From an uncultured Dehalococcoidales bacterium (GTDB lineage Bacteria; Chloroflexota; Dehalococcoidia; Dehalococcoidales; DAOVUZ01): DNA of 46,866 nt. Below the pieces are notes generated by a model. The model did not search any database, was not told the DNA's origin, and was given only the letters and a program-made list of their open reading frames with translations. Below are positions 8,609 to 29,878 of the stretch, piece after piece. The stretch covers positions 1 to 46,866 of the forward strand of contig CAZTRJ010000003.1 of NCBI GenBank assembly GCA_964616615.1, read 5' to 3'. How positions within the stretch are numbered: the first letter of the stretch is position 1; each line of letters begins with the position of its first letter. The position numbers and the translations under genes are program-made.

Positions 8609-8622
8609 GAAAGGAGGCTAAA

Positions 8623-9756: not shown

Positions 9757-9836
9757 AGATGTAGGGCTATTGTCTGATATAATAGAAAACTGGACAGTGA
9801 TACTTGAACAATACAAGACTATAAAGGAGGAAGAGG

Positions 9837-10901: not shown

Positions 10902-10903
10902 AG

Positions 10904-11683
10904 TTGGCGTTACTGGCCGCAATTCGGTTTCTAACCAGTATACCATTGCCCTGGGGGCGTGACGCTAGTCAGGAGGAATTTGTCCGCTCCGTGGGTTATT
11001 ACCCCGTGGTCGGCTTGGTTATTGGTCTAATTCTAGCCGGGCTCAGTTGGCTTTTGAGGCTTATTTTACCTTCGGCGGTAGTTAATGTGGTGCTGATTGT
11101 TTATCTAGTGATAATTAGTGGCGCATTGCACCTAGATGGCTTCGTTGATACCTGTGACGGGATAGGTGGTCACAAGACTCCTGAAGAAAGATGGCAGGTA
11201 ATGCGTGACAGTCGGGTTGGCGGTTTTGGTGTTATTGGCGCCTGCTGCCTAATCCTGGCTAAATATATCTCACTGAATAGTGTGCCCGAGCCTTTACTAA
11301 TGTCGACTCTGGTGCTTATGCCGGTAATAAGTCGCTGGGCAATGGTCTATGCTATTTGTGCCTATCCTTCGGCCAGCCCATCAGGTTTAGGGAAGGAGCG
11401 TAAGCAGGCTTCTGACTGGACAAGGTTTACCATGGCTACATTCATAACCCTGACAATAGCTATCGGTCTGGCTTGGCTGGCAAACATAAACTACTTCTAT
11501 CTGGTAGAACCTGCTATAATAGTTAGCATCTGGGTCATAGTGATAATCATGGGAGCCTATTTCAAGCGTAAGTTTTCTGGTCTTACTGGTGACACCTACG
11601 GGGCTATAAATGAGGTAGCCGAGGTCTGCGTCCTAATTATTGTAGTCCTGCTGGCTCACAACCAGTGGTTGGGATTAACCTAG
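10904..11683 (+). CDS. cobS: adenosylcobinamide-GDP ribazoletransferase (cobalamin synthase)
   Basis: Membrane protein with FLTSIPLP and HLDGFVDTCDG motifs. TTG start 2 nt after the cobT stop. Confidence 0.85.
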   Translation: MALLAAIRFLTSIPLPWGRDASQEEFVRSVGYYPVVGLVIGLILAGLSWLLRLILPSAVVNVVLIVYLVIISGALHLDGFVDTCDGIGGHKTPEERWQVMRDSRVGGFGVIGACCLILAKYISLNSVPEPLLMSTLVLMPVISRWAMVYAICAYPSASPSGLGKERKQASDWTRFTMATFITLTIAIGLAWLANINYFYLVEPAIIVSIWVIVIIMGAYFKRKFSGLTGDTYGAINEVAEVCVLIIVVLLAHNQWLGLT

Positions 11684-11696
11684 TTCGGAGGTATAA

Positions 11697-12302
11697 TTGT
11701 CTAGACTATTTCTGGTAAGACACGGTGATACCGAAGCAGGCAGTGGTCTAAGGTACTGGGGGCAGAGTGATGTTAAGCTGAGCGCCCTCGGACTCAGGCA
11801 GGCTGAGAGCTTGCGCCACCGACTGGCAACACAGAAGATTGATGCTATCTATACCAGTAACCTGATGCGGGCTTCAGTAACGGCTAAGACCATTGCCTCC
11901 GAGCACCAGCTGGATGTTACCACCTGTGCCGAGCTGAACGAAGTTAACTTCGGCAAGGTTGAGGGGCTGACATTTGACGAGGTTAGCCAGCTTTACCCCG
12001 AGGTAGCTCAAACCTGGGCTAGCCGGAGCCTCAGTCTTTCGTTTCCCGATGGCGAAAACTTTGATAGGTTTAATAACCGGGTAAGTAAATTCTTAAGCCG
12101 ACTGGAGAAACATACTCCGGAGGAAGCGATACTTATTGTGGCTCACGCCGGACCGCTGCGACTGCTGTTATGCCATATTCTAGGCCTGGAGTTATGTCAC
12201 TGGCGGCAGTTTCGTCTTGATTTAGCTTCGCTCAGTATAGTGGAAACCCATTCCCAGGGAGCAATAGTGAGCCTATTAAACGATGTTTCCCATTTAACAT
12301 AG
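11697..12302 (+). CDS. cobC: alpha-ribazole phosphatase (histidine phosphatase family)
   Basis: LVRHGDT catalytic motif, VAHAGPLR second His motif, position after cobS. Confidence 0.8.
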   Translation: MSRLFLVRHGDTEAGSGLRYWGQSDVKLSALGLRQAESLRHRLATQKIDAIYTSNLMRASVTAKTIASEHQLDVTTCAELNEVNFGKVEGLTFDEVSQLYPEVAQTWASRSLSLSFPDGENFDRFNNRVSKFLSRLEKHTPEEAILIVAHAGPLRLLLCHILGLELCHWRQFRLDLASLSIVETHSQGAIVSLLNDVSHLT

Positions 12303-12327
12303 AAAGGTCAATACTATAGGGAGTAAG

Positions 12328-13014
12328 GTGAGTAATATGAATCAGGTTTTTACCTCGTGGAGCGGGGGCAAAGATAGCTGCTTTGCCTGTTACCGAGCAA
12401 CTATCAACGGTCTAAAAGTTCGCTACCTGGCAAATATGATAACTGATGACGGTAAGCGGTCATGGAGCCACGGACAATCTCCCGAATTACTACAGGTGCA
12501 GTCACAGGCTATAGGAATTCCACTGGTTCAGCATCGGGCTACCAGAGACAACTATGAAGCCGAGTTTAAAAATATGCTCCGCGCCTTCAAGCAGGAGGGG
12601 GTTGACGGGGGTGTCTTTGGCGATATTGACTTTAATGAACACCGAGAATGGATTGAAAGAGTATGCCAGGCAGTAGATATTACCCCCCATTTACCCTTAT
12701 GGGGAGAGAACCAGGAAAAAATACTGAGAGACTTCATAAATTTGGGGTTTGAGACAATTATAGTTGTGACCAAGTCAGACCTGCTTGGTGAAGAGTGGCT
12801 GGGGCGGAAGGTTGACCTGGATTTCTTAAAACATTTAGATGAACTAAGAGAAACAAAGAACATTACTCCCTGCGGTGAATCCGGGGAGTATCATACCTTT
12901 GTTACCGATGGTCCTCTATTTAAGCAGCGGATAGAAATCCTGGAAACGAGAAAGGTTTTTAGAGACGAACACTGGTTTCTAGAGATTTTGGACACTGATT
13001 TGAGAGCCAAGTGA
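12328..13014 (+). CDS. PP-loop ATP pyrophosphatase, Dph6/MJ0570 (diphthine-ammonia ligase-like) family
   Basis: N-terminal SWSGGKDS PP-loop and about 225 aa length typical of the MJ0570-type domain. The start could be ATG 12337. Confidence 0.6.
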   Translation: MSNMNQVFTSWSGGKDSCFACYRATINGLKVRYLANMITDDGKRSWSHGQSPELLQVQSQAIGIPLVQHRATRDNYEAEFKNMLRAFKQEGVDGGVFGDIDFNEHREWIERVCQAVDITPHLPLWGENQEKILRDFINLGFETIIVVTKSDLLGEEWLGRKVDLDFLKHLDELRETKNITPCGESGEYHTFVTDGPLFKQRIEILETRKVFRDEHWFLEILDTDLRAK

Positions 13015-13043
13015 AGAAGGAAAGCTTGAAGGGGGTGAGGTAG

Positions 13044-13607
13044 ATAAACACTCTAATAATTGGTGGCGCCCGCAGTGGCAAAAGCCATTTTGCCCAGGAG
13101 CTTGCCCTGAAGTCAGGACAATCAGTGCTTTTTGTAGCTACCGCTGAGGCTGGTGATGAAGAAATGCGACAACGCATCGAGCAACACCAGAAGTCAAGAC
13201 CAGCAGCTTGGAGCACCCTTGAAGCTACCACACATATAGGCAGCCAGATTCCCCAGAGACTCGGTGGGGCTAAGGTGGTAATTATAGATTGTATCACCCT
13301 TCTGGTGAATAATACTTTTGGTCAGTATAGCCACCAGAGCGGTGAGCAAATTGATGCCCCCCTTATTGAGGAAAACCTTACTGCTGAGATTAATGAGCTG
13401 GTAGAGTGTATTGACCAGGTTGATGCCAGCTTCATTATCGTTACCAACGAGGTTGGTCTGGGCTTGGTGCCGGCTAATACAGTGGGCAGGCTTTATCGCG
13501 ATTTACTGGGCAGGGCAAACCAAGCCCTGGCACAGCGGGCTGACGAGATTTACCTCATGGTTGCTGGCTTACCGGTGTTGATAAAACCAGCCCAGTATAA
13601 TCTCTAA
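13044..13607 (+). CDS. cobU: adenosylcobinamide kinase / adenosylcobinamide-phosphate guanylyltransferase
   Basis: P-loop IIGGARSGKS is encoded at 13056-13085. This is upstream of the first canonical start (GTG 13125) and downstream of the in-frame TAG at 13041. VTNEVGLGLVP motif. The start is provisionally ATA 13044, behind SD GGGGGTGAGG. Confidence 0.7.
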   Translation: MNTLIIGGARSGKSHFAQELALKSGQSVLFVATAEAGDEEMRQRIEQHQKSRPAAWSTLEATTHIGSQIPQRLGGAKVVIIDCITLLVNNTFGQYSHQSGEQIDAPLIEENLTAEINELVECIDQVDASFIIVTNEVGLGLVPANTVGRLYRDLLGRANQALAQRADEIYLMVAGLPVLIKPAQYNL

Positions 13608-13696: not shown

Positions 13697-14701
13697 TTAA
13701 TGATGCTTGGCGACATCCACCATAGCCAGAAGGTTTTCCTCTGGTGTGCCCGGGGCTATAGCGCAGCCCGGAGCCAACATCTGGATACCCAGCCCTATAG
13801 ACTTTTCGGCTTCCGCTCTTACCGTTTCTGCATTTTGCATAAACAGTGTATTCTTCACATCCACCCCGCCCATAAGTATCATATCCGGTCCACATTTTTC
13901 CCTGGCTAACTTGACATCAGCATCAGGTTCTATGCTCAAGATGTCAGCACCGGTCTGCCCCATCCACTCTACAATGGCATCCACCTTACCGCAGATATGA
14001 AGTATCTTGGGAACTCTTATGGCGGCGAACTGCTTTTTCTGGTATCCAAGCTCCAAGTCCCGGTAACTCTTGGGTATTATGAGGTCGGGAGAAGCAGTCA
14101 TATCCTCATTGACAATGATGTCGGCGCCGGCATCAATAAGGGCGTTGGCCAGCATGGTTCCCGCCTTTTCGCTTACTTCCAAGAAGGGGGGAATCTTCTC
14201 CGGTTGCTTAAAGCTGGCTTTCAGTATTACTGTCGTGTCTAAGAGAGAACCAGCAATGGTCCAGGGACCGATAATCCCGGCGACAATAGCTACCTCATCC
14301 CCCACTTCCTTCTTGAGGATTTTAACCGCCTTGAGCAGTTCCGGTATCCTACCTCGTGACAGAAAGTCATCGGGAAACACCGGGGTATCATCCAGTGTAT
14401 AGGCGGTTGGTGGATGGTCAATACCAGGGATACCCTTGGTTTTGCCGGACTTTACCTTACAACCAAGAGCCTCAGCCTCAAAGGTCTGGCAGAATGGCAC
14501 CCTTACCGCATCAAAGCCGAGAATAGTATAGGCCCCCAGCGCCTGTTTAGCCATCAGTTCCCCATTTTCATGCGCTTCAGGCCAAAAGGCCTGAACCTTT
14601 TCCATCTGTTCGTAGGTTACGGTGGAGTTGGCACCAAAGCAGGGCATCCTATCCGGCTTTTGATGGTTCAGTACTGCCATTATACGTTCTTTACCTGTCA
14701 T
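13697..14701 (-). CDS. URO-D/MtaA-CmuA family corrinoid methyltransferase
   Basis: N-terminus ERIMAVLNHQKPDRMPCF, ILHICGK motif, C-terminal LAPGCAIAPGTPEENLLAMV typical of the uroporphyrinogen-decarboxylase-fold methylcobamide methyltransferases. Confidence 0.8.
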   Translation of the reverse strand: MTGKERIMAVLNHQKPDRMPCFGANSTVTYEQMEKVQAFWPEAHENGELMAKQALGAYTILGFDAVRVPFCQTFEAEALGCKVKSGKTKGIPGIDHPPTAYTLDDTPVFPDDFLSRGRIPELLKAVKILKKEVGDEVAIVAGIIGPWTIAGSLLDTTVILKASFKQPEKIPPFLEVSEKAGTMLANALIDAGADIIVNEDMTASPDLIIPKSYRDLELGYQKKQFAAIRVPKILHICGKVDAIVEWMGQTGADILSIEPDADVKLAREKCGPDMILMGGVDVKNTLFMQNAETVRAEAEKSIGLGIQMLAPGCAIAPGTPEENLLAMVDVAKHH

Positions 14702-14860
14702 TTTAGTCCTCCTTCCTTACTATTAAATATTTACAAACTCTGGCTCTGACTATAATACAATTTTCACCCCCTTCCCCAGTGAACAGTTACCGCTCTCTCG
14801 TTGGCTTGGGAAGGATATAAACACCGGAGATATCACTTCCCGCCTTGAGCCTACTGCTGG

Positions 14861-15442
14861 CTAAAATTCAATTCCTGGCTGTGCCCTAATGCCCTGGTGA
14901 AAGGGATGCTTCACCTCCCGCATCTCAGTCACCAGGTCGGCAAAATCAATGCACTCTTGGGGAATATCCCGCCCGGTAACGATTACATGGATTTCCTTGG
15001 GACGATGCCTTAACACCTCAAGCACTTCCTCCGCAGATAGCCAACCGTATTTAAGGGGATAGCTGAGTTCATCTAGAATCACTATATCATAAGACCCGGA
15101 GTTAATTCTCTCTCTGGCCAAGTCCCATAGCTTGATGGCTTGACACTTGCCTTCCGGGACAGATTTGTCAAAAGGAGGCACATCGGCTCGGAATATCTCA
15201 ACTCCCATCTGCTGTGCTGCCCGGTGCTCACCCCAGTCGCTCCTCGAAGTCTTTATGAACTGGAACATGACCACCTTCATCTGCCGACCCCAGGCTCTGA
15301 GGAGCACGCCCAGAGCTGCTGTTGTCTTACCCTTCCCTCTGCCGGTATTGACAATTACCAGGCCAGTAGTCTCTCTTGTACCTTTGGCATCACCCACCTT
15401 AGCCTCCTTGCCCTGATGATGTGCACCGAGGTCAGTCGACAA
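14861..15442 (-). CDS. cobO: cob(I)yrinic acid a,c-diamide / cob(I)alamin adenosyltransferase (CobA/CobO/BtuR type)
   Basis: NTGRGKGKTTAALG P-loop, QFIK, ILDELSYPLKYGWL, VTGR motifs. Confidence 0.8.
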   Translation of the reverse strand: MSTDLGAHHQGKEAKVGDAKGTRETTGLVIVNTGRGKGKTTAALGVLLRAWGRQMKVVMFQFIKTSRSDWGEHRAAQQMGVEIFRADVPPFDKSVPEGKCQAIKLWDLARERINSGSYDIVILDELSYPLKYGWLSAEEVLEVLRHRPKEIHVIVTGRDIPQECIDFADLVTEMREVKHPFHQGIRAQPGIEF

Positions 15443-16061
15443 GGACCATGCCTACCCAGCTCCTGCCTTCATCCTGACCGAAGCTCAGGAAAAGCCCCGC
15501 CTTTTGAACAGTAGCCACCACATCTATGCCCATAGCCTCCATTGCTGGTCTTGCTTTGAGAGGGTGACGACAAGGTAATCCAGAGCTGATGCCAACGCAT
15601 TCCTCACATAAGCAGCAAGTACCCCCTAGAAGGCCAGCGGCGAAACGGTATCCTGCGGCAAAACAGAGAGCTTCTATGCGGTTAACTACCCCGTGAAGCT
15701 TCTTCTGGGCATCGTCGATGATGGTCATCTCCTCCGGCGTTGGTGCTCCCGGCGTCTCTTCCCTTTCCTCTCCACTGTCCCTGGACAGACCAGGCAATGG
15801 AATAACCATCTTTATCAGAATAGCGCTGTGATAGCAGCTAAGTATCTCCCTGAATTTCGATATCGGCGGCAGGTTAGGGGGGCACATTAGGTTGCCATAG
15901 TCGGGGCAGACGGGCACCAGACACTTTAGCCTTGTCCTCTCATCCAGTACTACATCGTCAACTGACAAGGCTACTGCCTGGGATGCTCCCAGGGCTTCTG
16001 CCTTCCGGCACATGGATGCTATGAAAGAGCCAAGATTCCTTTGTGACATATCAAACGCCAT
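15432..16061 (-). CDS. Cys-rich predicted metal-binding protein (DUF2284-like)
   Basis: CLVPVCPDYGNLMCPP and CCLCEEC Cys clusters, as recalled for DUF2284 proteins that accompany corrinoid methyltransferase genes. Overlaps the cobO start by 11 nt. Confidence 0.55.
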   Translation of the reverse strand: MAFDMSQRNLGSFIASMCRKAEALGASQAVALSVDDVVLDERTRLKCLVPVCPDYGNLMCPPNLPPISKFREILSCYHSAILIKMVIPLPGLSRDSGEEREETPGAPTPEEMTIIDDAQKKLHGVVNRIEALCFAAGYRFAAGLLGGTCCLCEECVGISSGLPCRHPLKARPAMEAMGIDVVATVQKAGLFLSFGQDEGRSWVGMVLVD

Positions 16062-16124
16062 ACAAACTCCATATGAATAAAAGTGCTAGCCGCAGCTACA
16101 GTTGTCAGCAAACCTCAGCGACTA

Positions 16125-17192
16125 TCACCCCAGCTTTCCATATTTTATCGTCGCTGCCACCAGCGCCTCCATGTTCTCTTTAGGTGCAGTCGGCCAGAGG
16201 TCACATCCGGGCCATACCGCATTGACCCCCTCGGCGATAGCCTGCTTCACAGCACTGTCAACATTCTCAGGCTTGCCTTCCACCATCACTTTGGAAGTGT
16301 CAATATTCCCAAAGATGAGCACATCAGGTCCCACCTTCTGCCGAGATTCGGCTATATGGTTTTTTTGCTCTACGCTGATGGCATCAGCCCCACAGATTGC
16401 CATCTGGTCAACAATGCCATCGGTATCACCACACATATGCAGAACCTTGGGCGACGGCAGAGCGGCAATGATTCGTTCCAGATGAGGCCGGACTACACTT
16501 CCAAACATACGCGGGCTTAATATGTCTCCTCCGGCTGCCATTTCATGGACAGTTATATAATCGGCGCCGGCTTCTTTATAAATCCTGGCGGTCTCGATTT
16601 CAACCTCATCCAGAATGTCCAGCAACTTACAGACTATATCTGGCTTCTTAAATGCCACCTTAGCCATGTGCCCGGGGTCGGTGACCTGACCGGCTAAGGT
16701 ATAGGATCCTAGAATTATGGCTCCTACTGCTACTTGCTCGCCTACTTCCTCTTTTAACAGGCGAATCGCTTCGGTTACTACAGGTATCCTTCCCGCCTTG
16801 GCTAAATCCGAGGGGACATTGACAGTCACATCCTCTATATGCTCAGCTAGATTCTGTTTTATGGTGGGGTAGATAACACCTTCAAAATGAGGGTAGAAAT
16901 TAACCTCGCAGCCCAAGGCCTCGGGTTCAATCCCGAAGTCAAAAGGAACTGTGGCACACTCAAAACCAAATAACTGGAATGTAGATGCAGCCGCACTCGC
17001 CATCTTGTGCGCATCACTATGAACATCTGTGAATCTACAGCCACATTTATTAAGTCCATCTACTGTTACGTTCCCCAGACCACTGAAAACAGGAATGCGG
17101 TCTATTTTGTCCCCTCTAAAAAGTCTGAGCACTCGTTCCCTGGAACTAAGTTCTGTGTTCATACTGTTCCTTTCCTGCATACCGTATTTCAA
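16125..17192 (-). CDS. URO-D/MtaA-CmuA family corrinoid methyltransferase
   Basis: RERVLRLFRGDKIDRIPVFSGLGN, VLHMCGD, WPGCDLWPTAPKENMEALV. Confidence 0.8.
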   Translation of the reverse strand: MKYGMQERNSMNTELSSRERVLRLFRGDKIDRIPVFSGLGNVTVDGLNKCGCRFTDVHSDAHKMASAAASTFQLFGFECATVPFDFGIEPEALGCEVNFYPHFEGVIYPTIKQNLAEHIEDVTVNVPSDLAKAGRIPVVTEAIRLLKEEVGEQVAVGAIILGSYTLAGQVTDPGHMAKVAFKKPDIVCKLLDILDEVEIETARIYKEAGADYITVHEMAAGGDILSPRMFGSVVRPHLERIIAALPSPKVLHMCGDTDGIVDQMAICGADAISVEQKNHIAESRQKVGPDVLIFGNIDTSKVMVEGKPENVDSAVKQAIAEGVNAVWPGCDLWPTAPKENMEALVAATIKYGKLG

Positions 17193-17380
17193 ACATGCGG
17201 TTCAGCATATTTGAGAGCAATATAGTTAAACCACTGCTGGCAAATTTTACCAGCTATTACCCAAGATTTACATGCTTTATTTTGCTACTGCCGCCAGTGC
17301 CTCTATGTCCTCCGTGGACACAATCATCAGATATTACACCCCGACCATAACGGTAGTGACAGCCTCGACAATAGTCGTCT

Positions 17381-18460
17381 TCACTTAGCCCAGAGAGTCC
17401 CCGGGACCGGGTTCTCGGCGTCGCTGTATTTCTTGGCAGCTTCCACCATCGCTTTTATGTTCTTCACCGGCGCCTCTGGCCAAATATCACAGGCGGGCCA
17501 TACCGCATCAACGCCTTCCCCAATAGCTGCCTTCACTTGCTGGTCAATCTCTTCCGGTGTTGACATCGCCAGCAATTGGTAAACATCCAAGTTCCCCATG
17601 AGGCGAACACCACTACCCTCCATTTTCTCCCTTGATTGACGGATATGATTCTTCTGCTCTACGGAGATAAAATCAGCCCCGGTTTTAATCATGTATATTA
17701 TATCGTCATCCGTGTCACCACAGGTATGCAGAATCCTGGGGTGGTCTATTTGGGAGAACAAGTCCTGCAAATGAGGCAATATCAGGTCCTCGTACGTCTT
17801 CGGGCTTAATAGCTCAGTGGCGCATGTCATCTCACGGACGCACACATAGTCAGCACCAGCCTCTCGGTAAAGTTTAACCTCCTGAGCAAGGTAGTCAGTC
17901 AGAACCTTCAGTAGCTGGTGCACCATGTCTCTATTCTTCAGTACCATCTTAGATAGGTCAACAACAGTATCTACCGCTCCCGCCACGCCGTAGGGACCCA
18001 GAATGTAAGCGCCGATTGCTACCTGGCCACCCACCTCCTTTTTCAAAAGGCGAAGCGCCTCTTCTACCACAGGTATTCTGCCTGCCCCAGATGGCTTTTT
18101 CTTCTTTAGCGCCTCAAGGTCCAGATCCACCAGTTTCTCCGTCAATTCATGCTTCATAGTGGGGTAGATGATTCTTTCTTTCTTCGCCTCGTAAAACTCA
18201 GGTACGGAGCCTAATGATTCAGCCTCTAGGTGGTAATCATAGGGAACTACGGCACACTCAAACCCAGTGGCTGGGTATGTGGCCGCTGCCGCCATTGCCA
18301 TTTTATAAGCATCTCGGTGCAGGTCTCCAAAAAGCAAGCCAAGGCGCTCTACCTCTTCTACCAGCACATTCCCCATACCAGTGAAACAGGGAATGCGGTC
18401 TACCTTTTCCTTCTTGAGAAATCGAATCACTCGTTCTCTAGAATTAAGTTCTGTTGCCAT
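17381..18460 (-). CDS. URO-D/MtaA-CmuA family corrinoid methyltransferase
   Basis: Paralog of 16125..17192 (RERVIRFLKKEKVDRIPCFTGMGN, ILHTCGD, WPACDIWPEAPVKNIKAMV). Confidence 0.8.
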   Translation of the reverse strand: MATELNSRERVIRFLKKEKVDRIPCFTGMGNVLVEEVERLGLLFGDLHRDAYKMAMAAAATYPATGFECAVVPYDYHLEAESLGSVPEFYEAKKERIIYPTMKHELTEKLVDLDLEALKKKKPSGAGRIPVVEEALRLLKKEVGGQVAIGAYILGPYGVAGAVDTVVDLSKMVLKNRDMVHQLLKVLTDYLAQEVKLYREAGADYVCVREMTCATELLSPKTYEDLILPHLQDLFSQIDHPRILHTCGDTDDDIIYMIKTGADFISVEQKNHIRQSREKMEGSGVRLMGNLDVYQLLAMSTPEEIDQQVKAAIGEGVDAVWPACDIWPEAPVKNIKAMVEAAKKYSDAENPVPGTLWAK

Positions 18461-18461
18461 A

Positions 18462-19415
18462 TTATTTTTCCTCCTCCTTTCCTAATAATTGCTCTACTAC
18501 CTTAGGGAACAGTAGGTTCAAAGGATGACCCTCAGTGGGTAAGGGTGCGCCCTCAGCATAGGCCCTGGCAGCCAGCATGCTACTAGCTGTTGCCACCGCG
18601 GGGTAGATTCGCTCCAGAGCAGTCATAGGACCAGGCAATATCCAGTCGCTTTCTATAGCAGTTATTGCCTGCATAGCAGCATCCACAGCCGGAAACTTGC
18701 TGGCACCCTCCTCACCCACAGACTTCTTCCACATATAGGTGCCGTTGGACGGAGCACAGCCCACCGGTAGCCCAAATTTCTCCTTGACCAGACGATTACC
18801 TATCAAGGAGAAGGCGGTGAGCGGTAAGCCCATCACCGCTGTGTCTACCAGGATGCTCTCGAAATTCCCTTTCTCCACCAGGGGTAGCAGCTTCTGGAGC
18901 GCCGAGACTCGTCCATTGGGTCCCATATCCTCCACATCAAACGCCTGAACGACCACATGCTTTACACCCAATTCCTTGAGTTCCGCTACCTGACCTTCAA
19001 TATCCTCATCCCAGGGAGTAATGCTATTATAAAGAAAGCGGTCCATCAGTCCTAGCTCAGCTATATAACGCGTTGCCGCAATTCTCGTCTTTGCCACCCA
19101 GATGTCGACACCGAAGGGTAAGTCGGTCACACTGGTGTAAAAATCAACCCACACCTTCATCTCATCCGTCTTGTTAGCTACCATAACCACCATACCGGGC
19201 ACGCCTGTCTCCTGAGACAGACGCTCCATCTCGTGGATACGTTCTGTAGCCTTCGCTCTGTCAAACTTACGCTCCTTTCTACTCTCAAGGAGCACATCCC
19301 CCTTCTGGAACATATTCCAAAATAAAACCGGGGGATTCTGTCCCGGTTGCCCACCCACTTTGATGCCACCAATGTTAAAAACCTTCTGTTCCAAGTTATA
19401 TTTAAGCATCACCAA
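18462..19415 (-). CDS. MtrH-family methyltransferase (methyl-corrinoid:tetrahydropterin methyltransferase-like)
   Basis: Alignable by eye to archaeal MtrH: FNIGGIKVGGQPGQNP, LYNSI, GLPVGCAPSN, GHPLN. Ends 1 nt before the next methyltransferase start. Confidence 0.75.
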   Translation of the reverse strand: MVMLKYNLEQKVFNIGGIKVGGQPGQNPPVLFWNMFQKGDVLLESRKERKFDRAKATERIHEMERLSQETGVPGMVVMVANKTDEMKVWVDFYTSVTDLPFGVDIWVAKTRIAATRYIAELGLMDRFLYNSITPWDEDIEGQVAELKELGVKHVVVQAFDVEDMGPNGRVSALQKLLPLVEKGNFESILVDTAVMGLPLTAFSLIGNRLVKEKFGLPVGCAPSNGTYMWKKSVGEEGASKFPAVDAAMQAITAIESDWILPGPMTALERIYPAVATASSMLAARAYAEGAPLPTEGHPLNLLFPKVVEQLLGKEEEK

Positions 19416-19434
19416 TATACCTCCTTTCTGGAGT

Positions 19435-21426
19435 TTATTTCTCTGCTCTCTGACTAAGAATGTCCTCTAAGTGAGGGAACTTATCCTTCATATGGGGCAA
19501 CCACATAGCCTGACCAAAAATCTTGTCAAAATCCGTCTCCACAGTCAACTCCACATATTCCACCATCCTAGCGATTTTGTCGGCTTCATCCCTCTGGTCT
19601 TTATCCATAAGGGCAACGCGGGCGCCATCACCGGCAGCATTACCCACGGAATAGACATTCTCCATATCACAACCGGGGAACATTCCCAGAACCGCCGCCG
19701 ATACCTTGTCAATAAAACTGCCGAAGGCTCCCGCCAGAACGACCTTATCAATTTTTTCAATGCCCAAGCGACGCATCATTATCTTGGCACCGGAATACAT
19801 CGCCCCCTTGCCTAGCTGGATAGCCCTCACATCAGCCTGGTTAACTGTGATGTCCTGCCCGATGGAGGTTTCTTTTGCCCAGGCAATTACATACTCGGCC
19901 TGCTCCTTCTCGTCAAGGCGTATACGAGGATTGTCTGACTCCTTGGTAAGAACACCATTCGTGGCTACCAGACCCGCCAGCCACAACTGAGGCACAACAT
20001 CAATTATTGCCGAGCCGCAGATACCGTTAGCTCCTAGATTTTCCTCCGCTTCTGTATTCCACTCCTCCCTGCCGATAACCTTGAAGTCAGCCTCTTTGGT
20101 AACCGGGTCTATCTTTATCTTCTCAATAGCCCCCGGAGCGGCACGACACCCGAACTTCATCTCGGCTCCTTCAAACGCCGGCCCAGTGGCACAGGAGGAA
20201 GAAATGAGCTTTTCCCGGTTGCCCAAAACCAGCTCGCCATTAGTGCCGATGTCGATGATGAGCTCCATACTATCCTGCTCATAAGGCTTCTCGCAGAGGA
20301 GCACGCCGACATTATCCGCCCCGACAAAGCCAGCCTCAATAGGAAGAACATGGACATAAGCCCCCGGGGCTATCTTGAGTCCCAGGTCTCTAGCCTTGTA
20401 ATTTACCGAGTGGTGTCTCGCTGCCGGGAAAGGAGCCATGCCGATATACTCGGTATCAACACCCATAAACAGGTGGTGCATACAAGTATTGCCGACTGCG
20501 GTCATGTCAATGATATCCCGCCGCTTGATGCCTGCCTTAAGGGCAGCTCTCCCACAGATTTCATTCAGACCCTTAACGATGGTATCCTGCATTGTCGACG
20601 CGCCGTCCTCGTGGGTCATATTATAGGTAATACGCGCCATCACATCTTCACCGTAAATTGTCTGCGGGTTCATCATGGATTCGGTGGCTACTACCTCGCC
20701 AGTGGACAGGTCACACAGGTAACCAACTACCGTGGTGGTGCCGATATCAAAAGCTATACCATAAGCCTTTTCCACATTTCCCGGCTCTATCAAGATAATT
20801 TCTTTATCCATCCATACCGATACGGTTACCTCCCACTTTTCGGCATATTTCCCACCAATCTTTCGCACCCTGTCCTGCATAGTCTTCAGTACCTGATAGT
20901 CAAGGTCGAGTTGCTTCGATACTCCATACTGCTCATTAAGCGCGTTACATATCCGCTCAAAGTCAGGGAGGGGGTCATAAAATGTCGCTGCCGGCAGTAC
21001 CAAATGGTATTTCTTCACCGCTGGGTTTACCTCAAGCCATGGTATCTCCCTGGCTGCCTTGCGCACAATCTGCTTGGCCAGCCGGCTCTCCTCAGGGACG
21101 AAGACCATAACATCACCGTGGATACAAGCCTGGCAAGCCAGCCGGTAACCTTCCTTCGCCTCCCTATCACTGATAAACTTCTCCTTCTCCGTTTCGTTTA
21201 TTGGACTGAGATGACTCCCGCTTGAGTCAATATGGTATTTCTCAAAGAACCCCTCTTCTATCCTGACCTTACACTTGCCGCAGGTACCCTTTTGAGAGCA
21301 AGTGCCTTCAATACCTACCCCCAGTTTCTCCGAAGCCTCCTTGAGGTTCACTCCGTCTTCGATATCGCCTCTACGACCCGATGGAGTAAAGATAACCTTG
21401 TGCATTTGGTTCCCCTGTTCCGTCAT
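19435..21426 (-). CDS. RACo-type reductive activator of corrinoid proteins ([2Fe-2S] ferredoxin + ASKHA ATPase)
   Basis: N-terminal plant-type ferredoxin Cys pattern (GTCSQKGTCGKCKV ... LACQ). Large ASKHA/DUF4445-like body (AFDIGTTTV, IDIGTNGE, CGSAI). Confidence 0.8.
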   Translation of the reverse strand: MTEQGNQMHKVIFTPSGRRGDIEDGVNLKEASEKLGVGIEGTCSQKGTCGKCKVRIEEGFFEKYHIDSSGSHLSPINETEKEKFISDREAKEGYRLACQACIHGDVMVFVPEESRLAKQIVRKAAREIPWLEVNPAVKKYHLVLPAATFYDPLPDFERICNALNEQYGVSKQLDLDYQVLKTMQDRVRKIGGKYAEKWEVTVSVWMDKEIILIEPGNVEKAYGIAFDIGTTTVVGYLCDLSTGEVVATESMMNPQTIYGEDVMARITYNMTHEDGASTMQDTIVKGLNEICGRAALKAGIKRRDIIDMTAVGNTCMHHLFMGVDTEYIGMAPFPAARHHSVNYKARDLGLKIAPGAYVHVLPIEAGFVGADNVGVLLCEKPYEQDSMELIIDIGTNGELVLGNREKLISSSCATGPAFEGAEMKFGCRAAPGAIEKIKIDPVTKEADFKVIGREEWNTEAEENLGANGICGSAIIDVVPQLWLAGLVATNGVLTKESDNPRIRLDEKEQAEYVIAWAKETSIGQDITVNQADVRAIQLGKGAMYSGAKIMMRRLGIEKIDKVVLAGAFGSFIDKVSAAVLGMFPGCDMENVYSVGNAAGDGARVALMDKDQRDEADKIARMVEYVELTVETDFDKIFGQAMWLPHMKDKFPHLEDILSQRAEK

Positions 21427-21472
21427 CGTTCCCTTCCTTTCTATTTGTATTTTTTATATTTTTGATGGCACA

Positions 21473-21793
21473 CTACTTATGCATAATATCGAATATCACC
21501 ACCACATCACGAGGTAGAGCTAGCTCAGCCTCAGCCTCGATTGCCTTAAGGACAGCCATGGGAACGGGGCAGGTAGTATGCAACTTACACCTTGAAGCAG
21601 CTTTATAAACTTCAGTGTCTACGTGCCGTTTAAGTACCTCTCCCTCGTCTATCTCTGTCAGTGATTCGCCCAGCTCAGTTACCATTTCACAGCCGCTGGT
21701 AATTACGACCTTAAAGCTCTCATCGTCAACTCTGTCAACCTCTACAGTGCTGATAAAACCACAGATACCCGACTTAACGATTACCCTGGTCAT
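21473..21793 (-). CDS. small conserved-looking Cys-containing protein, unknown function
   Basis: 106-aa ORF with an RBS (AGAGGAA), placed just upstream of the activator gene. Four Cys (GICGF, SGCEM, SRCKLHTTCP). No family recognised. Confidence 0.4.
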   Translation of the reverse strand: MTRVIVKSGICGFISTVEVDRVDDESFKVVITSGCEMVTELGESLTEIDEGEVLKRHVDTEVYKAASRCKLHTTCPVPMAVLKAIEAEAELALPRDVVVIFDIMHK

Positions 21794-21815
21794 CCATATT
21801 CCTCTATTCTAACCC

Positions 21816-22126
21816 CTACTGATGGACGGCAAAACCGCCTAAACCTCTGCCTACCCTGTCCATCTGCCGAACATCATACAAACTCCCCCTCGGTAGCATT
21901 TCGCCGCCTGGTTCTAGTGTAAAACCCGGTTTGTGCTTCTTCCCAATCTCAATGGCTTTTCAGCAACTTTCCTAGACATCAGCAGCCGTGCCTACCTGAA
22001 AAACCGCTGGCTCAACGTTCCCGTAGAGAATGTCATTGGGAAAAAGCTTGCTAAAACTCTCAAAAGGTGTTGGACAGTTAAGAGCCCGATAACCACCGAT
22101 GTACCCGGCGCCAAAATTAACTATGC
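21816..22126 (-). pseudogene. decayed C-terminal relic of a URO-D/MtaA-family methyltransferase
   Basis: The - strand translation reads WRIVNFGAGYIGGYRALNCPTPFESFSKLFPNDILYGNVEPAVFQVGTAADV*ESC*KAIEIGKKHKPGFTLEPGGEMLPRGSLYDVRQM. This parallels the C-terminus of the intact paralogs (ILGNVESKVVLTHGTAEEVRAVARKALEAG..MLEPSCG..MPLNNIKVLV). It has in-frame TAG and TGA codons, and the N-terminal ~240 aa are missing. Confidence 0.4.
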
Positions 22127-22231
22127 GCCACTACCCCTTTCCTATTAATAGAAGCGTCAACTACTTTCAGCAGGTAGCGAGCTACTTTATACGCCATTCC
22201 CTCTTGTCTTATTTCCCCTCTCTTTTGTGGG

Positions 22232-22918
22232 CTATTTCTTAGCTGCTGCCTCTTCTTCCTTCAGCATTGCAATCAGCTTCATCGCTTCATCAACCGCCGT
22301 CCCAGCACTTTCTGCATATCCATCAGCATCATATTTTTTAGCTACATCTGGGTTTATCGGAGCACCGCCTATCATAATACGGCACTTGGGATTTTTCTCC
22401 CTTATCTTCTTTATCACCACCGGCATGCCCAGCATGCTAGTCGTCATCATAGCTGAGAGAGCCACAATCTCAGAATTAGTCTTAAGCTGCTCCTCGACAA
22501 ACTTTTCCAGTGGCACATCCCTTCCCAGGTCATAGACGCTCCAGCCAGCAACATCAAACATCATCTTGATCAGGTTCTTGCCGATGTCGTGAACATCGCC
22601 CTCAACCACACCAATGACTACTGTCCCCGCCACTTTTGATTTTCTTCCTGAGGCAATGATGGCCGGCTTTAAGATGTCCAAGCCAGCATACAGCGCATCG
22701 GCACACATCAGGAGTTCCGGGACAAAGTACTCCTTTTTGTTGTACAGGTCGCCTACCGCTACCATCCCATTAGCCAGACCGTCCATTGTGGCGACGAAGG
22801 GGTCTACGCCTTCGTCTATAGCAGCGTGGCTAAGCTCCACCACCTTGTCCTCATCAAAAGCCACCACCGCGTCATGAAGCCCTTTTAGTATTTCCTTAGT
22901 TCTCTCCTCTGAAGCCAA
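22232..22918 (-). CDS. corrinoid (B12-binding) protein of MtaC/MtbC/MttC type
   Basis: B12-binding DxHxxG motif (GDVHDIGKN), SAMMTTSM and GGAP motifs, N-terminal helical cap. TTG start behind AGGAGG. Stop codon is TAG. Confidence 0.85.
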   Translation of the reverse strand: MASEERTKEILKGLHDAVVAFDEDKVVELSHAAIDEGVDPFVATMDGLANGMVAVGDLYNKKEYFVPELLMCADALYAGLDILKPAIIASGRKSKVAGTVVIGVVEGDVHDIGKNLIKMMFDVAGWSVYDLGRDVPLEKFVEEQLKTNSEIVALSAMMTTSMLGMPVVIKKIREKNPKCRIMIGGAPINPDVAKKYDADGYAESAGTAVDEAMKLIAMLKEEEAAAKK

Positions 22919-23117
22919 TTTTCTCCTCCTTTTTTGATTAAAATAACACCTAAATCAGGTGGATAGTCGTTCCTCTTTTTAAGTTTTTTTACCTAGCTGC
23001 CATCACCTCTCTTTCCATCACTTGGCTCTATTGCCCAGCCAGCAAGCGTTTATGCAAGCCAACTTCACTGCCCATACCAAACAATATGAACACCAAGCAC
23101 CTCTATCTACCAGGTAG

Positions 23118-23147
23118 AATATACAACAGGCATATTCTTATTGTCAA
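23118..23147 (-). promoter_or_regulatory. sigma70-like promoter for the corrinoid-protein operon
   Basis: On the - strand: TTGACA (23147-23142), an 18-nt spacer, then TATATT (23123-23118). A small palindrome ACAGTTTAACACTGT sits just upstream. Confidence 0.45.
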
Positions 23148-23207
23148 GAACACAGTTTAACACTGTTTAGCAATTCTGCCCAGATAGCTCTAGCTGAAAA
23201 CTCAGAG

Positions 23208-24233
23208 TCACTCCTTAAGTTTAAAGTTTCTAGCCTCTTCGACAAGGACTTTTATGTTATTGAGCGGCATTAATGCTTCAAGACCACAGCTAGGCTCGAG
23301 CATAGTAACACCAGCCTCAAGCGCTTTCCTAGCTACGGCTCTCACCTCTTCAGCGGTACCATGGGTTAGCACCACTTTGGATTCAACATTACCCAAGATT
23401 TTAACGTCACCTACGATTGGCTTTATCCGGGCGATGTCAACACTTTGCTTAACGCTTATAACGTCAAAACCAATGTCAGCGATGTCTGGTATAAATGGTT
23501 CGACATCCCCACACAGATGTAGGATTCTTATTCCACCCAGATTGTCGGCGATTTTTTTCAGGGCGGGCTTAATATATTCTCTAAAAGTCTTGAGACCCAT
23601 TATGTCAGGCGTTCCCAGAGGCTCGCCAAGTGAGATTACATCAGAGCCAGCACGATATTGTGCCTTGCCATACTCTATGATGGCTTCCACGGCAAAATCA
23701 ATGAACTTTTTGGCACTTTCCGGATTCTTTACTGCCCACATCAAGAATCTCGTTGGCTCGGCTAACTCACCAGCTAGTGAATAAGGACCAAAGACAAAAC
23801 TTGTTACCGGGAGAAAATCTCCCACCTTTCTCCTCGCCAAACGAATGGCTTCCATTACGGCTGGAATTCTACCTCTTTTCAGAAAATCATCTGGCATCTT
23901 CAGGTCCTCGGCTTTATCAAAGGCATGATGTAGCATTGCTGGTTTAAGTTCATGACGGTCATAGAACTGAATTTCACAGCCCAAAACCTCAGGCAATATA
24001 CTGAATTCGTACCCAATGTTCACATTTCCCAGTCCAGTTATCTCCTGGCTAGCAATAGCCAGATTTGCCATCTTTTCCGGGTCTTGAAAGGCTTCAGGCC
24101 AGTATATTCCAGCCGCTTTTTGAATCTCTACGGTAACACTTCCTCCACAAGCCCCGATGCAGGTTGCCGGTACCTCATCAACTTTCCCTCCCAATAAAGC
24201 AGTCAACACCCTTCGTTTTGGAGTGAATTTCAA
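23208..24233 (-). CDS. URO-D/MtaA-CmuA family corrinoid methyltransferase
   Basis: RRVLTALLGGKVDEVP, ILHLCGD, MLEPSCGLEALMPLNNIKVLV. Confidence 0.8.
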   Translation of the reverse strand: MKFTPKRRVLTALLGGKVDEVPATCIGACGGSVTVEIQKAAGIYWPEAFQDPEKMANLAIASQEITGLGNVNIGYEFSILPEVLGCEIQFYDRHELKPAMLHHAFDKAEDLKMPDDFLKRGRIPAVMEAIRLARRKVGDFLPVTSFVFGPYSLAGELAEPTRFLMWAVKNPESAKKFIDFAVEAIIEYGKAQYRAGSDVISLGEPLGTPDIMGLKTFREYIKPALKKIADNLGGIRILHLCGDVEPFIPDIADIGFDVISVKQSVDIARIKPIVGDVKILGNVESKVVLTHGTAEEVRAVARKALEAGVTMLEPSCGLEALMPLNNIKVLVEEARNFKLKE

Positions 24234-24316: not shown

Positions 24317-25360
24317 CTACTTTTCCTCAAATTTCACACCATATCTCGGGGCAACTTGTTGAATGGTACCAATTATCATACTATATAGAAGGTCCTCGGG
24401 TAACTTGCTGGCTATGGCGTCAACCACGAGCCTGCCACCACTCAGAGTATCCATATCACCAGTGAAATCGACTTCTTGGTCCAAGCTCACTAAACTGGCT
24501 TTAAGGAAGAAGCTCTCATCGCTGATAATCGCCTTTATATGGTTAATATCTCCTTCCATGCCGAGCACCTTTTCGGCTATCCCCACTAACAGGTAACGCA
24601 GGAAGTCCTTCAGCTCAGATTGGCTAAGAGTGCGCTCGACCTCAATGGCGTACCGCTCCCCCCGCTCCCCTATCTCAGTCACCGACCTAGCAAAAGTCTT
24701 AAACACGGTCATGGTAGCAACGGGAACAACTTCATGCCTTCCCCGAAGCACTATACCTGATAATTCATCTAAACCCGTCCCCGTTTTCGCCGACATCATA
24801 AGTAATCTTGCCCTGGGATTAATGTGCTGAATGATGGCTTGTATCGCTGGGAGCTGGTCCGGCGCCACCAGGTCCATCTTGTTTATCACCACTACCTCCG
24901 CATCCTCTATTTGACGGGACTCAATAAAGGGTAACTTCTCAGTATCTCCCTGATAGGATAAGAGTCGCAGCGCATCAACCAGTATTATTACCGGCGCCAA
25001 GTCCACTGTCTCACCAAACTTTCTCTGGAACGCCTCATACAGTTTTGAGGGCAGGAAATAAGCTACTGGCTCAATGAACATCACATCTGGGATAAACCTC
25101 TCGGTTATGGTATCAATGATGTAACCAAGATGGTCGAGGTAAAAGCAAATGCATCCTCCCGTGATTTCCCCAGCCTCGAACCCAAGACGCTTGGTCATCT
25201 CCCCATCGACATTGATTGCCCCTTTGTCATTAGATACTACCGCCACCCGCTTCCCCTCCCCACTCAGTTTTTTCCCCAGTTCCATAATGGCAGTAGTCTT
25301 GCCGACGGCGTAAAAGCCACCTATGCTGGCAACCCTTACTTTCTCCATTGTTATGCTCAT
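24317..25360 (-). CDS. G3E-family P-loop GTPase (CobW/MeaB/HypB-like) with C-terminal domain
   Basis: G1 GGFYAVGKTT, CobW-like GGCICF (degenerate CxCC), switch IEPVA, NKMDL (NKxD), and a ~130-aa C-terminal extension. Confidence 0.65.
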   Translation of the reverse strand: MSITMEKVRVASIGGFYAVGKTTAIMELGKKLSGEGKRVAVVSNDKGAINVDGEMTKRLGFEAGEITGGCICFYLDHLGYIIDTITERFIPDVMFIEPVAYFLPSKLYEAFQRKFGETVDLAPVIILVDALRLLSYQGDTEKLPFIESRQIEDAEVVVINKMDLVAPDQLPAIQAIIQHINPRARLLMMSAKTGTGLDELSGIVLRGRHEVVPVATMTVFKTFARSVTEIGERGERYAIEVERTLSQSELKDFLRYLLVGIAEKVLGMEGDINHIKAIISDESFFLKASLVSLDQEVDFTGDMDTLSGGRLVVDAIASKLPEDLLYSMIIGTIQQVAPRYGVKFEEK

Positions 25361-25417
25361 AATTAAAAACTATCTGGGGCTACTCTAACTTTTGTCAACA
25401 GGCAAATAACTTCCCGT

Positions 25418-26008
25418 CTACAATTTAACCCCAATGAGAATAGTCCCCTGACCCCGCACATCAACCCCGTTAAAATAGCCATTTTTCAAGAATAAATCAC
25501 AAGGTGTGGTGGGACTAGCATAAATAATGGAACGACATGAAAAATCGCTCCCCTCCAGGATACACCATTCGGCGAGGAGGCTCGGGGTCTCAAAACAGCA
25601 GACATCCTTGGCGATATCCTGAGGAAAAGATATCCTGTCCTTATAAATAACAAAATTATCCAGCATAAACCAGACATTTTCCTTTTTTTTCATCCTGGCA
25701 ATGGCTTCCTCATCCTCAATTTCTTCACCCACCACCTCCTCTCCTTTCTTTAAAATCAGGGAAGGAGAGCCCCACTCAAACTCTCTGTCAGTCAGGCCAA
25801 CATAGACCAAATCACAAGTTAGCACCTCCCTTATCCCGGTGTTGGCGACCCTACCCAGACCCATCAGGGAGTGCTTTTCGGCCTCATCCTCGATGCTCAA
25901 CACCTGCTGACTATCTTTTTCAGAAAAAGGGCAGATGTCTACGAGCCCCTTCACCTTTTTCAAGGCCGCTATCATCACCGCATCTGCCTTCGTCCGGTCT
26001 ATGGTCAT
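25418..26008 (-). CDS. hypothetical Cys-rich protein
   Basis: 196-aa ORF whose ATG overlaps the stop of the RamA-like gene (ATGA). Acidic linker and several Cys (DICPF, DVCCF, EWC, FSC, TPC). No family recognised. Confidence 0.4.
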   Translation of the reverse strand: MTIDRTKADAVMIAALKKVKGLVDICPFSEKDSQQVLSIEDEAEKHSLMGLGRVANTGIREVLTCDLVYVGLTDREFEWGSPSLILKKGEEVVGEEIEDEEAIARMKKKENVWFMLDNFVIYKDRISFPQDIAKDVCCFETPSLLAEWCILEGSDFSCRSIIYASPTTPCDLFLKNGYFNGVDVRGQGTILIGVKL

Positions 26009-29781: not shown

Positions 29782-29801
29782 AGCCACCAGTCTCACATAA
29801 T

Positions 29802-29838
29802 GGGGTGAGCTTCGCTAAGGAGTCACTAAGCTCACCCC
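29802..29838 (-). promoter_or_regulatory. leader hairpin upstream of pylC
   Basis: Perfect 11-bp stem GGGGTGAGCTT / AAGCTCACCCC with a 15-nt loop. It lies between the promoter and the pylC start, with no trailing U-run. Confidence 0.5.
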
Positions 29839-29849
29839 AAGCAGTGAAA

Positions 29850-29878
29850 ATTATAAGCCCAGCCTAAATTCTTGTCAA
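29850..29878 (-). promoter_or_regulatory. consensus sigma70 promoter for pylC-pylD
   Basis: On the - strand: TTGACA (29878-29873), a 17-nt spacer, then TATAAT (29855-29850). Both hexamers are perfect. Confidence 0.65.

Follow-up and report, generated by a model that had tools for sequence, protein, structure and literature searches.

A putative mosaic of older corrinoid methyl-transfer units beside pyrrolysine-dependent methylamine genes in an uncultured Dehalococcoidales bacterium

Homologs of the zinc methyltransferases MtaA and MtbA are widespread in bacteria, where their substrates and methyl acceptors are largely unknown (PMC10418091). The closest described gene sets include the type 1 mlp clusters, in which a corrinoid protein and a bacterial RACE are combined with two or three MtaA-like proteins and for which a role in methyl-selenide or methyl-sulfur metabolism was proposed (PMC10418091). 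In this superfamily, the S-methyltransferases possess a His-Cys-Cys zinc site, whereas the phenolic O-demethylases replace the Cys residues (PMC10418091). Here, we examine a gene cluster located at positions 13,697 to 24,233 of a 46,866-nucleotide stretch of DNA, referred to as the window, from an uncultured Dehalococcoidales bacterium (contig CAZTRJ010000003.1). The cluster contains four genes of the uroporphyrinogen decarboxylase (URO-D) family, named U1 to U4, together with genes for a corrinoid protein (CP), an MtrH-type methyltransferase and a RACo-type activase. An initial annotation presented it as one long operon with four paralogs. On the basis of the comparisons reported below, we incline to read the region as a mosaic made up of at least three older units, and not as a freshly expanding four-paralog operon.

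All the genes listed by the initial annotation were recovered with Pfam and NCBIfam, in the stated order and each on the minus strand (Table 1). Its description of the gaps as mostly tiny held inside the sub-blocks, where they measure 1-63 nt, but not between them, where the spacers reach 159, 188, 289 and 438 nt. The open reading frame (ORF) of U3 extends to 17192; its probable true start is the ATG at 17162, as the orthologs begin at the corresponding Met.

The pairwise identities of U1-U4 were between 27 and 34%, with the exception of the U2/U3 pair (47%). When scored against the MtaA/CmuA model TIGR01463 (cut-off 235.4 bits), U1 (296.7) and U4 (279.0) were above the cut-off and U3 (232.0) and U2 (206.2) below it; with PRK06252 (cut-off 244), U3 passed with 267.8 bits and U2 remained below with 239 bits. 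None of the four proteins reached the equivalog cut-offs of MtaA (NF040654, 400 bits) or MtbA (NF041608, 600 bits), the best scores on these two models (317 and 239 bits, respectively) both being obtained with U4. Among solved structures, true uroporphyrinogen decarboxylases aside, U1-U4 matched only M. mazei MtaA (4AY7), with 256.6 bits for U1, 224 for U4, 177 for U3 and 127 for U2. The identity to this enzyme was 27-38% over the four proteins (37.7% for U1 and 37.9% for U4), which falls in the range shared among characterised enzymes (PMC10418091).

In an alignment of U1-U4 with 10 relatives, the zinc ligands H242, C244 and C320 were invariant and aligned with the VLHICG and APGCG motifs (HxC...C) of M. 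mazei MtaA. The zinc site is accordingly predicted to be of the thiol/selenol-directed MtaA-like type and not of the O-demethylase type. Since all four proteins keep the His-x-Cys...Cys ligands, the O-demethylase analogy drawn in the initial annotation is disfavoured, and all four match M. mazei MtaA (127-257 bits). An assignment to OdmB, VdmB, MtvB or MtoB was ruled out by the retained Cys ligands and by the family scores, U1 and U4 passing TIGR01463.

Next, a neighbour-joining tree, without support values, was calculated from 56 URO-D proteins of the recovered loci and M. mazei MtaA (4AY7; sequence taken from a printed alignment). The latter was the sole characterised enzyme included. In this tree, U1 and U4 lie with MtaA and U2/U3 fall in a separate, purely bacterial clade. 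The initial annotation named a tight grouping of all four proteins with coenzyme M methyltransferases as part of what would refute it; half of this was observed, U1 and U4 grouping with MtaA, although no MtaA or MtbA equivalog cut-off was reached. U2 is a divergent relative of U3, and all observed members of its clade came from Dehalococcoidia-like contigs (L002, L005, L045 and L046). The closest relatives all derive from metagenomes; U2, for example, is 78% identical to a protein of the Dehalococcoidia metagenome-assembled genome (MAG) GCA_011170285.1.

In order to place these proteins in their genomic context, the window proteins were mapped with tblastn onto loci from other genomes. These loci were collected by exact-protein look-ups and by one scan of species-representative genomes (at least 36 loci and at least 600 stretches), and the distributions given here are those of this sample. 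Among the matches listed, U3-type genes adjoin CP, RACo and an MtrH-type gene, and often DUF6951, DUF2284 or CobO as well. The corresponding module, CP-(DUF6951)-RACo-MtrH-U3, was found among these matches in Desulfobacterales, in Dehalococcoidia and other Chloroflexota, in Desulfotomaculum copahuensis, Desulfotruncus arcticus and Desulfovirgula, and in Armatimonadota, Actinomycetes and Bacillota. The U3 orthologs are 45-66% identical in the genome loci and 81% in a close MAG. The MtrH-type gene is present in most recovered module loci, and U3 is in several of them the sole URO-D within the recovered flank, as in the S15 peptidase-CP-DUF6951-RACo-MtrH-U3 order of L007. Many of the loci also carry DUF2284, in most cases on the strand opposite to the module.

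The U4 orthologs keep other company. Among the matches listed, they were found in four Desulfobacterales loci (69-75% identity, L034-L037) and in one Armatimonadota locus (50%), and an MtmC-type corrinoid protein is adjacent in all five. RamA lies within 10 kb of the U4-type gene in four of the five loci, including L034-L036; CobW and a 196-aa protein are further partners in L034 and L035, and MtmB-family genes in L036 and L037. A co-location of the module with methylamine-type genes resembling that of the window was also observed on a Desulfobacterales contig (L011 and L036). As for U1, its pairing with CobW is conserved in L001-L003. In L002 (589-2996), the genes ahead of this pair encode another corrinoid protein, a 407-aa protein whose S-adenosylmethionine-methyltransferase-like domains are weak, and a histone-deacetylase-family protein; they replace the pyl/RamA genes of the window. 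These associations suggest that the four URO-D genes are old lineages, belonging to at least three orthologous lineages with different conserved partners. With 27-47% identity and differing conserved neighbours, they do not conform to a single uniform operon of recent paralogs.

The transcriptional layout was compared in the same way. A sigma-70-like site (TTGACA-18-TATATT, 11 of 12 matches) lies at 23147..23118 in the gap between U1 and CP and is the best of a 14-kb scan. Its hexamers and much of the leader that follows are identical or near-identical in L002, which makes the promoter placed upstream of CP by the initial annotation plausible. A promoter-like site is also present at 25398..25369, upstream of CobW. 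In relatives, the unit stops at U3, with DUF2284 and CobO on the opposite strand, so that the same-strand DUF2284-CobO-U4 tail appears to be specific to this lineage. The leader itself, about 200 nt long (22919-23117, minus strand), shows high conservation between the window and L002; at its end, immediately ahead of the ribosome-binding site, stand a hairpin and a U-run (22961..22947). The leader matched no Rfam family and gave no folding signal (z -0.07), and for these reasons a riboswitch is not claimed.

The methyltransferase relic noted by the initial annotation is real. Between CP and DUF6951, one frame of a 438-bp stretch matches positions 275-339 of 346 at the C-terminal end of the Pfam URO-D model (E 8e-5; at 22.2 bits, narrowly below the gathering score); it contains in-frame TAG and TGA stops, and the third zinc-ligand Cys is replaced by Gly. 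BLASTX of this stretch against U1-U4 returned no match. It was visible only to the Pfam hidden Markov model (HMM) and to the HMM of a lineage termed URO410-type, which gave 21 bits, compared with 2-3 bits for the U1, U2/3 and U4 HMMs. These scores indicate that the relic derives from this fifth, very divergent URO-D lineage and not from U1-U4. The URO410-type proteins are 21% identical to U2 and 21-33% to other URO-Ds, keep the HxC...C ligands and fall well short of the MtaA/CmuA cut-offs; when one of them was searched against PDB sequences, no match was obtained. The intact gene lies between CP and DUF6951 in L005 and adjoins CP in Desulfotruncus. Furthermore, the relic is homologous to the CP-DUF6951 spacer of L002, an approximately 78%-identical relative, where it carries different indels; as both carry it, the relic predates their split. 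In another relative (L045), relic and DUF6951 are both lost.

A second relic was detected between U2 and U3. This spacer is 84% conserved in four lineages, and in L045 a 42-codon ORF (11086-11214) persists in it, whose product shares 80% identity with the U3 C-terminus (E 1.5e-15). The frame is shifted in the window, where the remnants WSGCNI and EDIEALAAVAK are recognisable. The spacer is the decayed remainder of a U3-type gene, corresponding to roughly its final 40 codons; regulatory signals may lie in the conserved 3' half of this spacer, directly ahead of U3. Rearrangement and gene loss have shaped the cluster, in events that are old. The ongoing diversification which the initial annotation deduced from the paralogs and the decayed copy is not borne out, given identities of 27-47% and a relic that comes from a fifth lineage and is common to a 78% relative with different indels.

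The initial annotation reported no recognisable substrate-specific methyltransferase (MT1). This is correct inside the cluster, but 11 kb further upstream the same strand of the window carries an MtmB gene, accompanied by MtmC, RamA and the pyl set. Its 461-codon frame contains a single stop, a TAG at codon 202, at which the ORF lists split the gene into 35664-36383 and 36441-37046; the interruption of the frame by this amber codon explains why MtmB was overlooked. In the MtmB of M. barkeri, codon 202 is the pyrrolysine position, and the gene of the window is therefore read as a pyrrolysine-containing MT1 (Pyl-MtmB). Between pylB and tRNA-Pyl, the pyl cluster is interrupted by genes for an AAA (MoxR-like) ATPase, a DUF2201 VWA/metallopeptidase-like protein and a 229-aa protein without family; a comparable AAA and VWA pair flanks the module in Desulfotruncus arcticus (L024). 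The 196-aa protein encoded next to RamA is also found near RamA in L034, L035 and L045. Despite the pyl system, TAG is the ordinary stop of 11 of the 41 genes of the window, among them CP, DUF6951, CobO and CobW, with read-through tails that would reach at most 36 residues. Pyrrolysine systems were already known in Chloroflexi (PMC5424206).

Table 1. Positions and supporting matches of the genes, relics and related features.
Feature	Position	Strand	Evidence
U4, MtaA/CmuA-family Zn methyltransferase, 334 aa	13697-14701	-	Pfam URO-D E 9e-68
CobO, ATP:cob(I)alamin adenosyltransferase	14861-15442	-	PF02572 E 6e-59; TIGR00708 182.9 bits > 167.75
DUF2284, predicted metal-binding protein	15432-16061	-	PF10050 E 1e-37
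U3, URO-D/MtaA-like Zn methyltransferase	16125-17192	-	Pfam URO-D E 8e-65
Second relic, decayed 3'-terminal fragment of a U3-type gene	17193-17380	-	
U2, URO-D/MtaA-like Zn methyltransferase	17381-18460	-	Pfam URO-D E 1e-60
MtrH-type methyl-corrinoid:pterin methyltransferase (tetrahydrofolate probable)	18462-19415	-	PF02007 E 5e-48
RACo-type ATP-dependent reductive activase, N-terminal [2Fe-2S] domain	19435-21426	-	Pfam
DUF6951 (first described as a 106-aa protein)	21473-21793	-	PF22263 E 2e-27
Non-coding 438-bp stretch, URO-D pseudogene (URO410-type)	21794-22231	-	Pfam URO-D C-terminal match
Corrinoid protein CP, B12-binding_2 and B12-binding	22232-22918	-	Pfam; DxHxxG present
U1, URO-D/MtaA/CmuA-family Zn methyltransferase	23208-24233	-	Pfam URO-D E 1e-66
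CobW-family GTPase metallochaperone	24317-25360	-	PF02492 E 2e-24
Conserved 196-aa protein, no family match	25418-26008	-	
RamA	26005-27678	-	TIGR04270 788.8 bits > 500
pyl system: pylD, pylC, pylSc, pylSn, tRNA-Pyl, pylB	27753-35399	-	Pfam, NCBIfam
tRNA-Pyl, anticodon CUA	31207-31278	-	ARAGORN
pylB	34329-35399	-	
MtmB monomethylamine:corrinoid methyltransferase	35664-37046	-	PF05369 on both halves, E 1e-71 and 5e-114
MtmC-type corrinoid protein	37130-37768	-	TIGR02370 229.7 bits > 215.3
Amt-family transporter	37935-39116	-	PF00909
URO410-type genes in other loci	L005 3959-5191; L024 4668-5756; L009 1473-2516		

The other components of the module were characterised by family and structure matches. 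CP, in which GDVHDIGKN can be read, scored 198.5 bits with TIGR02370, below the 215.3 cut-off, and its PDB matches were MttC (146 bits) and the Moorella protein 1Y80 (143 bits). The MtrH-type protein scored 164.2 bits with PF02007 (gathering score 22.8), a borderline 286.9 bits with NF002142 (cut-off 287) and 165.6 bits with the MtgA equivalog model, whose cut-off is 550. Among PDB entries, it matched MtrH (8Z9U, 160 bits) and D. hafniense MtgA (6SJ8, 151 bits); an exact-sequence look-up of this protein matched no contig. Being bacterial and as similar to MtgA as to MtrH, it most likely uses tetrahydrofolate. RACo carries the Fer2, RACo_linker, Raco_middle and RACo_C_ter (ASKHA) domains, all above the Pfam cut-offs.

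In DUF6951, which is a facultative member of the module and is missing from L045, 28 homologs share the invariant residues C11, C35, H72 and C75. The 54 homologs detected are about 100-114 aa long, each a stand-alone protein, and a protein of another Dehalococcoidia MAG is 94% identical. The AF2 model (pLDDT 89.5) shows three strands plus helices, and Foldseek returned sub-threshold matches only, to IscU, SufU and SufE (E 0.1-1, TM 0.4-0.5). A metal- or cluster-handling role is, on this modelled fold, a guess. A literature search on DUF6951, or on URO-D, MtrH, corrinoid and tetrahydrofolate combined, found nothing.

These data support the corrinoid-dependent methyl-transfer system recognised by the initial annotation, and we agree with its statement that the substrates cannot be read from the sequence. 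Overall, we hold it somewhat more probable than its alternatives combined that the region represents a mosaic 'methylotrophy island' in a pyrrolysine-decoding bacterium. Its core unit, in which the conserved promoter would drive CP, the URO-D pseudogene, DUF6951, RACo, MtrH, U2, the U3-type fragment and U3, may constitute an autonomous and widely distributed corrinoid methyl-transfer module. Where this module holds only CP, the activase, the MtrH-type enzyme and one MtaA-like enzyme, the two methyltransferases must split the two half-reactions between them; the pairing of URO-D and MtrH as partner enzymes, put forward in the initial annotation, can be retained for U2/U3, since the module often consists of CP, RACo, MtrH and one U3-type URO-D. 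U2/U3 would demethylate a small donor whose leaving group is soft and methylate the Co(I) of CP, the candidate donors being a methylthiol/thioether or a methylselenide, or possibly a methyl halide, as in CmuA. The MtrH-type enzyme would then hand the methyl group on to tetrahydrofolate, while RACo would re-reduce inactive Co(II) at the expense of ATP. DUF6951 (IscU-like Cys3His), DUF2284, CobO and CobW may service the metal and corrinoid cofactors. U4, as the ortholog of an MtbA-like enzyme, would most likely demethylate methyl-MtmC produced by the upstream Pyl-MtmB. CobW-U1 would form a separate upstream unit, U1 being another MtaA-like enzyme of the MT2 type (methyl transfer from the corrinoid to an acceptor), perhaps also unloading methyl-MtmC.

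In this scheme, the gene identities, the zinc ligands, the links between orthologous groups and their neighbourhoods, the two pseudogene fragments and Pyl-MtmB are observed; we infer in which direction the methyl group flows, that tetrahydrofolate accepts it and which class of substrate is used. The catabolic direction is favoured because several URO-Ds share one CP and one MtrH, and because the module sits in a methylamine/B12 island, with a similar co-location in L011/L036. The sharing of CP and MtrH alongside B12 salvage genes and riboswitches would fit a catabolic funnel. These B12 genes occupy 1146-13607 on the plus strand, convergent with the methyltransferase genes. Two cobalamin riboswitches (1146-1291 and 7245-7438, plus strand) precede, respectively, a B12 uptake operon (BtuF-like, FecCD, ABC) and a nucleotide-loop/lower-ligand operon composed of CobD, an aminotransferase, ADH, glycosyltransferase family 3, CobT, CobS, CobC and CobU.

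Several points weigh against the methylotrophy-island reading. The sequence does not reveal in which direction the methyl group flows, and the transfer of a methyl group from a thioether to a pterin is uphill, as estimated from the -30 kJ/mol of the Mtr reaction, which favours the reverse direction. In the recovered loci, no transporter or substrate-specific gene is conserved beside the module; the neighbourhood in Desulfotruncus arcticus, as assigned by Pfam, contained cofactor-logistics genes only (MoxR/VWA, CbiMQ, DUF1638, DUF5714 and a PNPOx-like protein), with no clue to the substrate. The operon boundaries are drawn from consensus promoter matches and conservation, and such matches are not enriched overall (22, versus 16.7 ± 3.7 in shuffles). 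In addition, the link between U4 and MtmC is one of gene neighbourhood only, and the tree, which has no support values, holds a single characterised enzyme.

A more specific version of the same scheme would make the module a bacterial methylthiol (methanethiol/dimethylsulfide or methylselenide):tetrahydrofolate methyltransferase system, with U4 and U1 as MtbA-like enzymes of the pyrrolysine-dependent methylamine pathways that use an acceptor other than coenzyme M. We put this forward tentatively, as a proposal with about one chance in five of being right in full.

The model of the initial annotation, in which the four URO-Ds are substrate-specific MT1s, including ones for methoxylated aromatics, that all load CP and are unloaded by MtrH to a tetrahydropterin, appears rather unlikely. 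One CP, one MtrH and one RACo do stand beside several URO-D genes on one strand, and O-demethylase and Mto operons with multiple MT1s exist (PMC8630106). However, U1 lies upstream of the conserved promoter and is paired with CobW, the U4 orthologs associate with MtmC and RamA and not with this CP or MtrH, the unit of the relatives ends at U3 with DUF2284/CobO on the other strand, and the zinc site is of the thiol type and not of the O-demethylase type (PMC10418091).

Equally doubtful is a biosynthetic system running in reverse, in which MtrH would load CP from methyl-tetrahydrofolate and U2/U3 would methylate a thiol or selenol, either as a split MetH-like methionine synthase or as a producer of methanethiol, methylselenide or a methyl-thiol cofactor. 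Pterin-to-thiol transfer is exergonic and established for Mtr and MetH, and the domain logic parallels that of MetH, with pterin, B12 and Zn-thiol modules and a separate reactivator. In MtaA/MtbA, thiol acceptors are activated by a zinc site of this His-Cys-Cys type, and in vitro ClMlp2 uses methylcobalamin to methylate selenide (PMC10418091); RamA-like activators occur in known split MetH systems (cited in 10.1101/2021.08.30.458270), and DUF1638 occurs in the Desulfotruncus locus. On the other hand, two or three URO-Ds per module are hard to explain with a single biosynthetic acceptor, the module is located in the window in a catabolic methylamine/B12 island, and no methionine or sulfur-assimilation genes are conserved nearby in the recovered loci.

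A halomethane system akin to mec (dichloromethane) or CmuA, in which an MtaA/CmuA-like enzyme would dehalogenate CH3X or CH2Cl2 onto the corrinoid and MtrH would pass the C1 unit to tetrahydrofolate, is considered very improbable. The part list matches the mec core, made of MecE (MtaA/CmuA family), MecF (MtrH type), MecB (corrinoid), MecH (RACo), MecG (DUF) and MecC and MecI (URO-D) (PMC9768040; 10.1101/2021.08.30.458270), and the source is Dehalococcoidia-like. Against it, neither a PocR histidine kinase nor a response regulator or cation antiporter lies in or next to the cluster, the gene order is not that of mec, and close homologs of the mec proteins are reportedly limited to dichloromethane degraders and Dehalobacter, whereas the present module occurs widely in sulfate reducers.

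Finally, a conventional set in which all the URO-Ds are methylcobamide:coenzyme M-type MT2s for MT1/corrinoid pairs located elsewhere (here MtmB), with coenzyme M or another thiol cofactor as acceptor, has hardly any probability: U1, U3 and U4 pass the NCBIfam 'methylcobalamin:CoM methyltransferase' subfamily cut-off and U1 and U4 group with MtaA, but the MtaA (400) and MtbA (600) equivalog cut-offs are reached by none, the host is a bacterium with no coenzyme M genes within the 47-kb window, and the U3 module is complete without another MT1 in many genomes and its MtrH would be left unexplained.

At the far end of the window (39647-43924, minus strand), a gene adjoining tRNA-Ala and a DnaJ-like gene encodes a 1425-aa fusion with two BcrAD/BadFG ATPase domains, DUF2229 and an HGD-D-like region (CoA-enzyme activase type).

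The window carries three MtaA-like lineages side by side, each with its own conserved partner set, and the comparison defines a compact module (corrinoid protein, activase, MtrH and one MtaA-like enzyme), encountered repeatedly among sulfate reducers and Chloroflexota. This module is a small, clonable protein set for asking which methylated sulfur, selenium or halogen compounds feed or draw on the folate C1 pool. If it were indeed a methylthiol:tetrahydrofolate system, sulfate reducers and subsurface Chloroflexota could oxidise methylated sulfur compounds without coenzyme M. The case also illustrates how an amber-encoded MT1 escapes notice in a pyrrolysine-decoding genome.

When compared with known systems, U1-U4 share with the methanogen enzymes MtaA, MtbA and MtsA (4AY7) the URO-D fold and family and the His-x-Cys...Cys ligands, together with TIGR01463 membership for U1 and U4. 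U4 also sits with MtmC, RamA and MtmB, the company that MtbA keeps functionally in methanogens. They differ from these coenzyme M enzymes in their bacterial host and in scores below the equivalog cut-offs, and U2/U3 in addition form a separate clade coupled to an MtrH-type enzyme; methylation of coenzyme M by U2/U3 is unlikely. With the type 1 mlp clusters, the cluster has in common a CP, a 2Fe-2S RACo-type activase and at least two MtaA-like His-Cys-Cys proteins in an anaerobic bacterium, but type 1 mlp clusters characteristically have no tetrahydrofolate methylase, whereas an MtrH-type gene is present here at 18462-19415. The glycine betaine system of D. hafniense (MtgB/MtgC/MtgA) likewise possesses an MtrH-family methyl-corrinoid:tetrahydrofolate enzyme (MtgA 6SJ8, 151 bits), and CP is related to MtgC; its MT1, however, belongs to the MttB family and not to URO-D, and the MtgA and MtgC equivalog cut-offs are not reached by the proteins of the window.

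The part list appears closest to those of the mec dichloromethane cassette and of the Mto system. The mec cassette (MecA-J) also combines an MtaA/CmuA-family methyltransferase, an MtrH-type methyltransferase, a corrinoid protein, RACo, a small DUF protein and extra URO-Ds, but in a different gene order, and the taxonomic spread of the present module is broad. In the Pfam assignments of the genes scanned across 77-46580, neither a MecA-type PocR histidine kinase nor a MecD response regulator nor a MecJ cation antiporter was found. Membership of the mec group was rejected as these regulators and the antiporter are missing, the likeness to the Mec proteins considered here being one of part list. 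The same four functions recur in Mto (MtoA-D) and the bacterial O-demethylases (OdmB, VdmB and MtvB), namely an MT1 of the URO-D superfamily, a corrinoid protein, a 2Fe-2S activase and, in Mto, an MtrH-like MT2 (PMC8630106, PMC8359953); their MT1s, in contrast, cluster apart from MtaA/CmuA and have carboxylates or non-ligands in place of the Cys ligands that U1-U4 keep. Because it lacks the defining features of type 1 mlp, of mec and of the O-demethylases in turn, we treat the cluster as an uncharacterised member of the three-component corrinoid methyltransferase systems.

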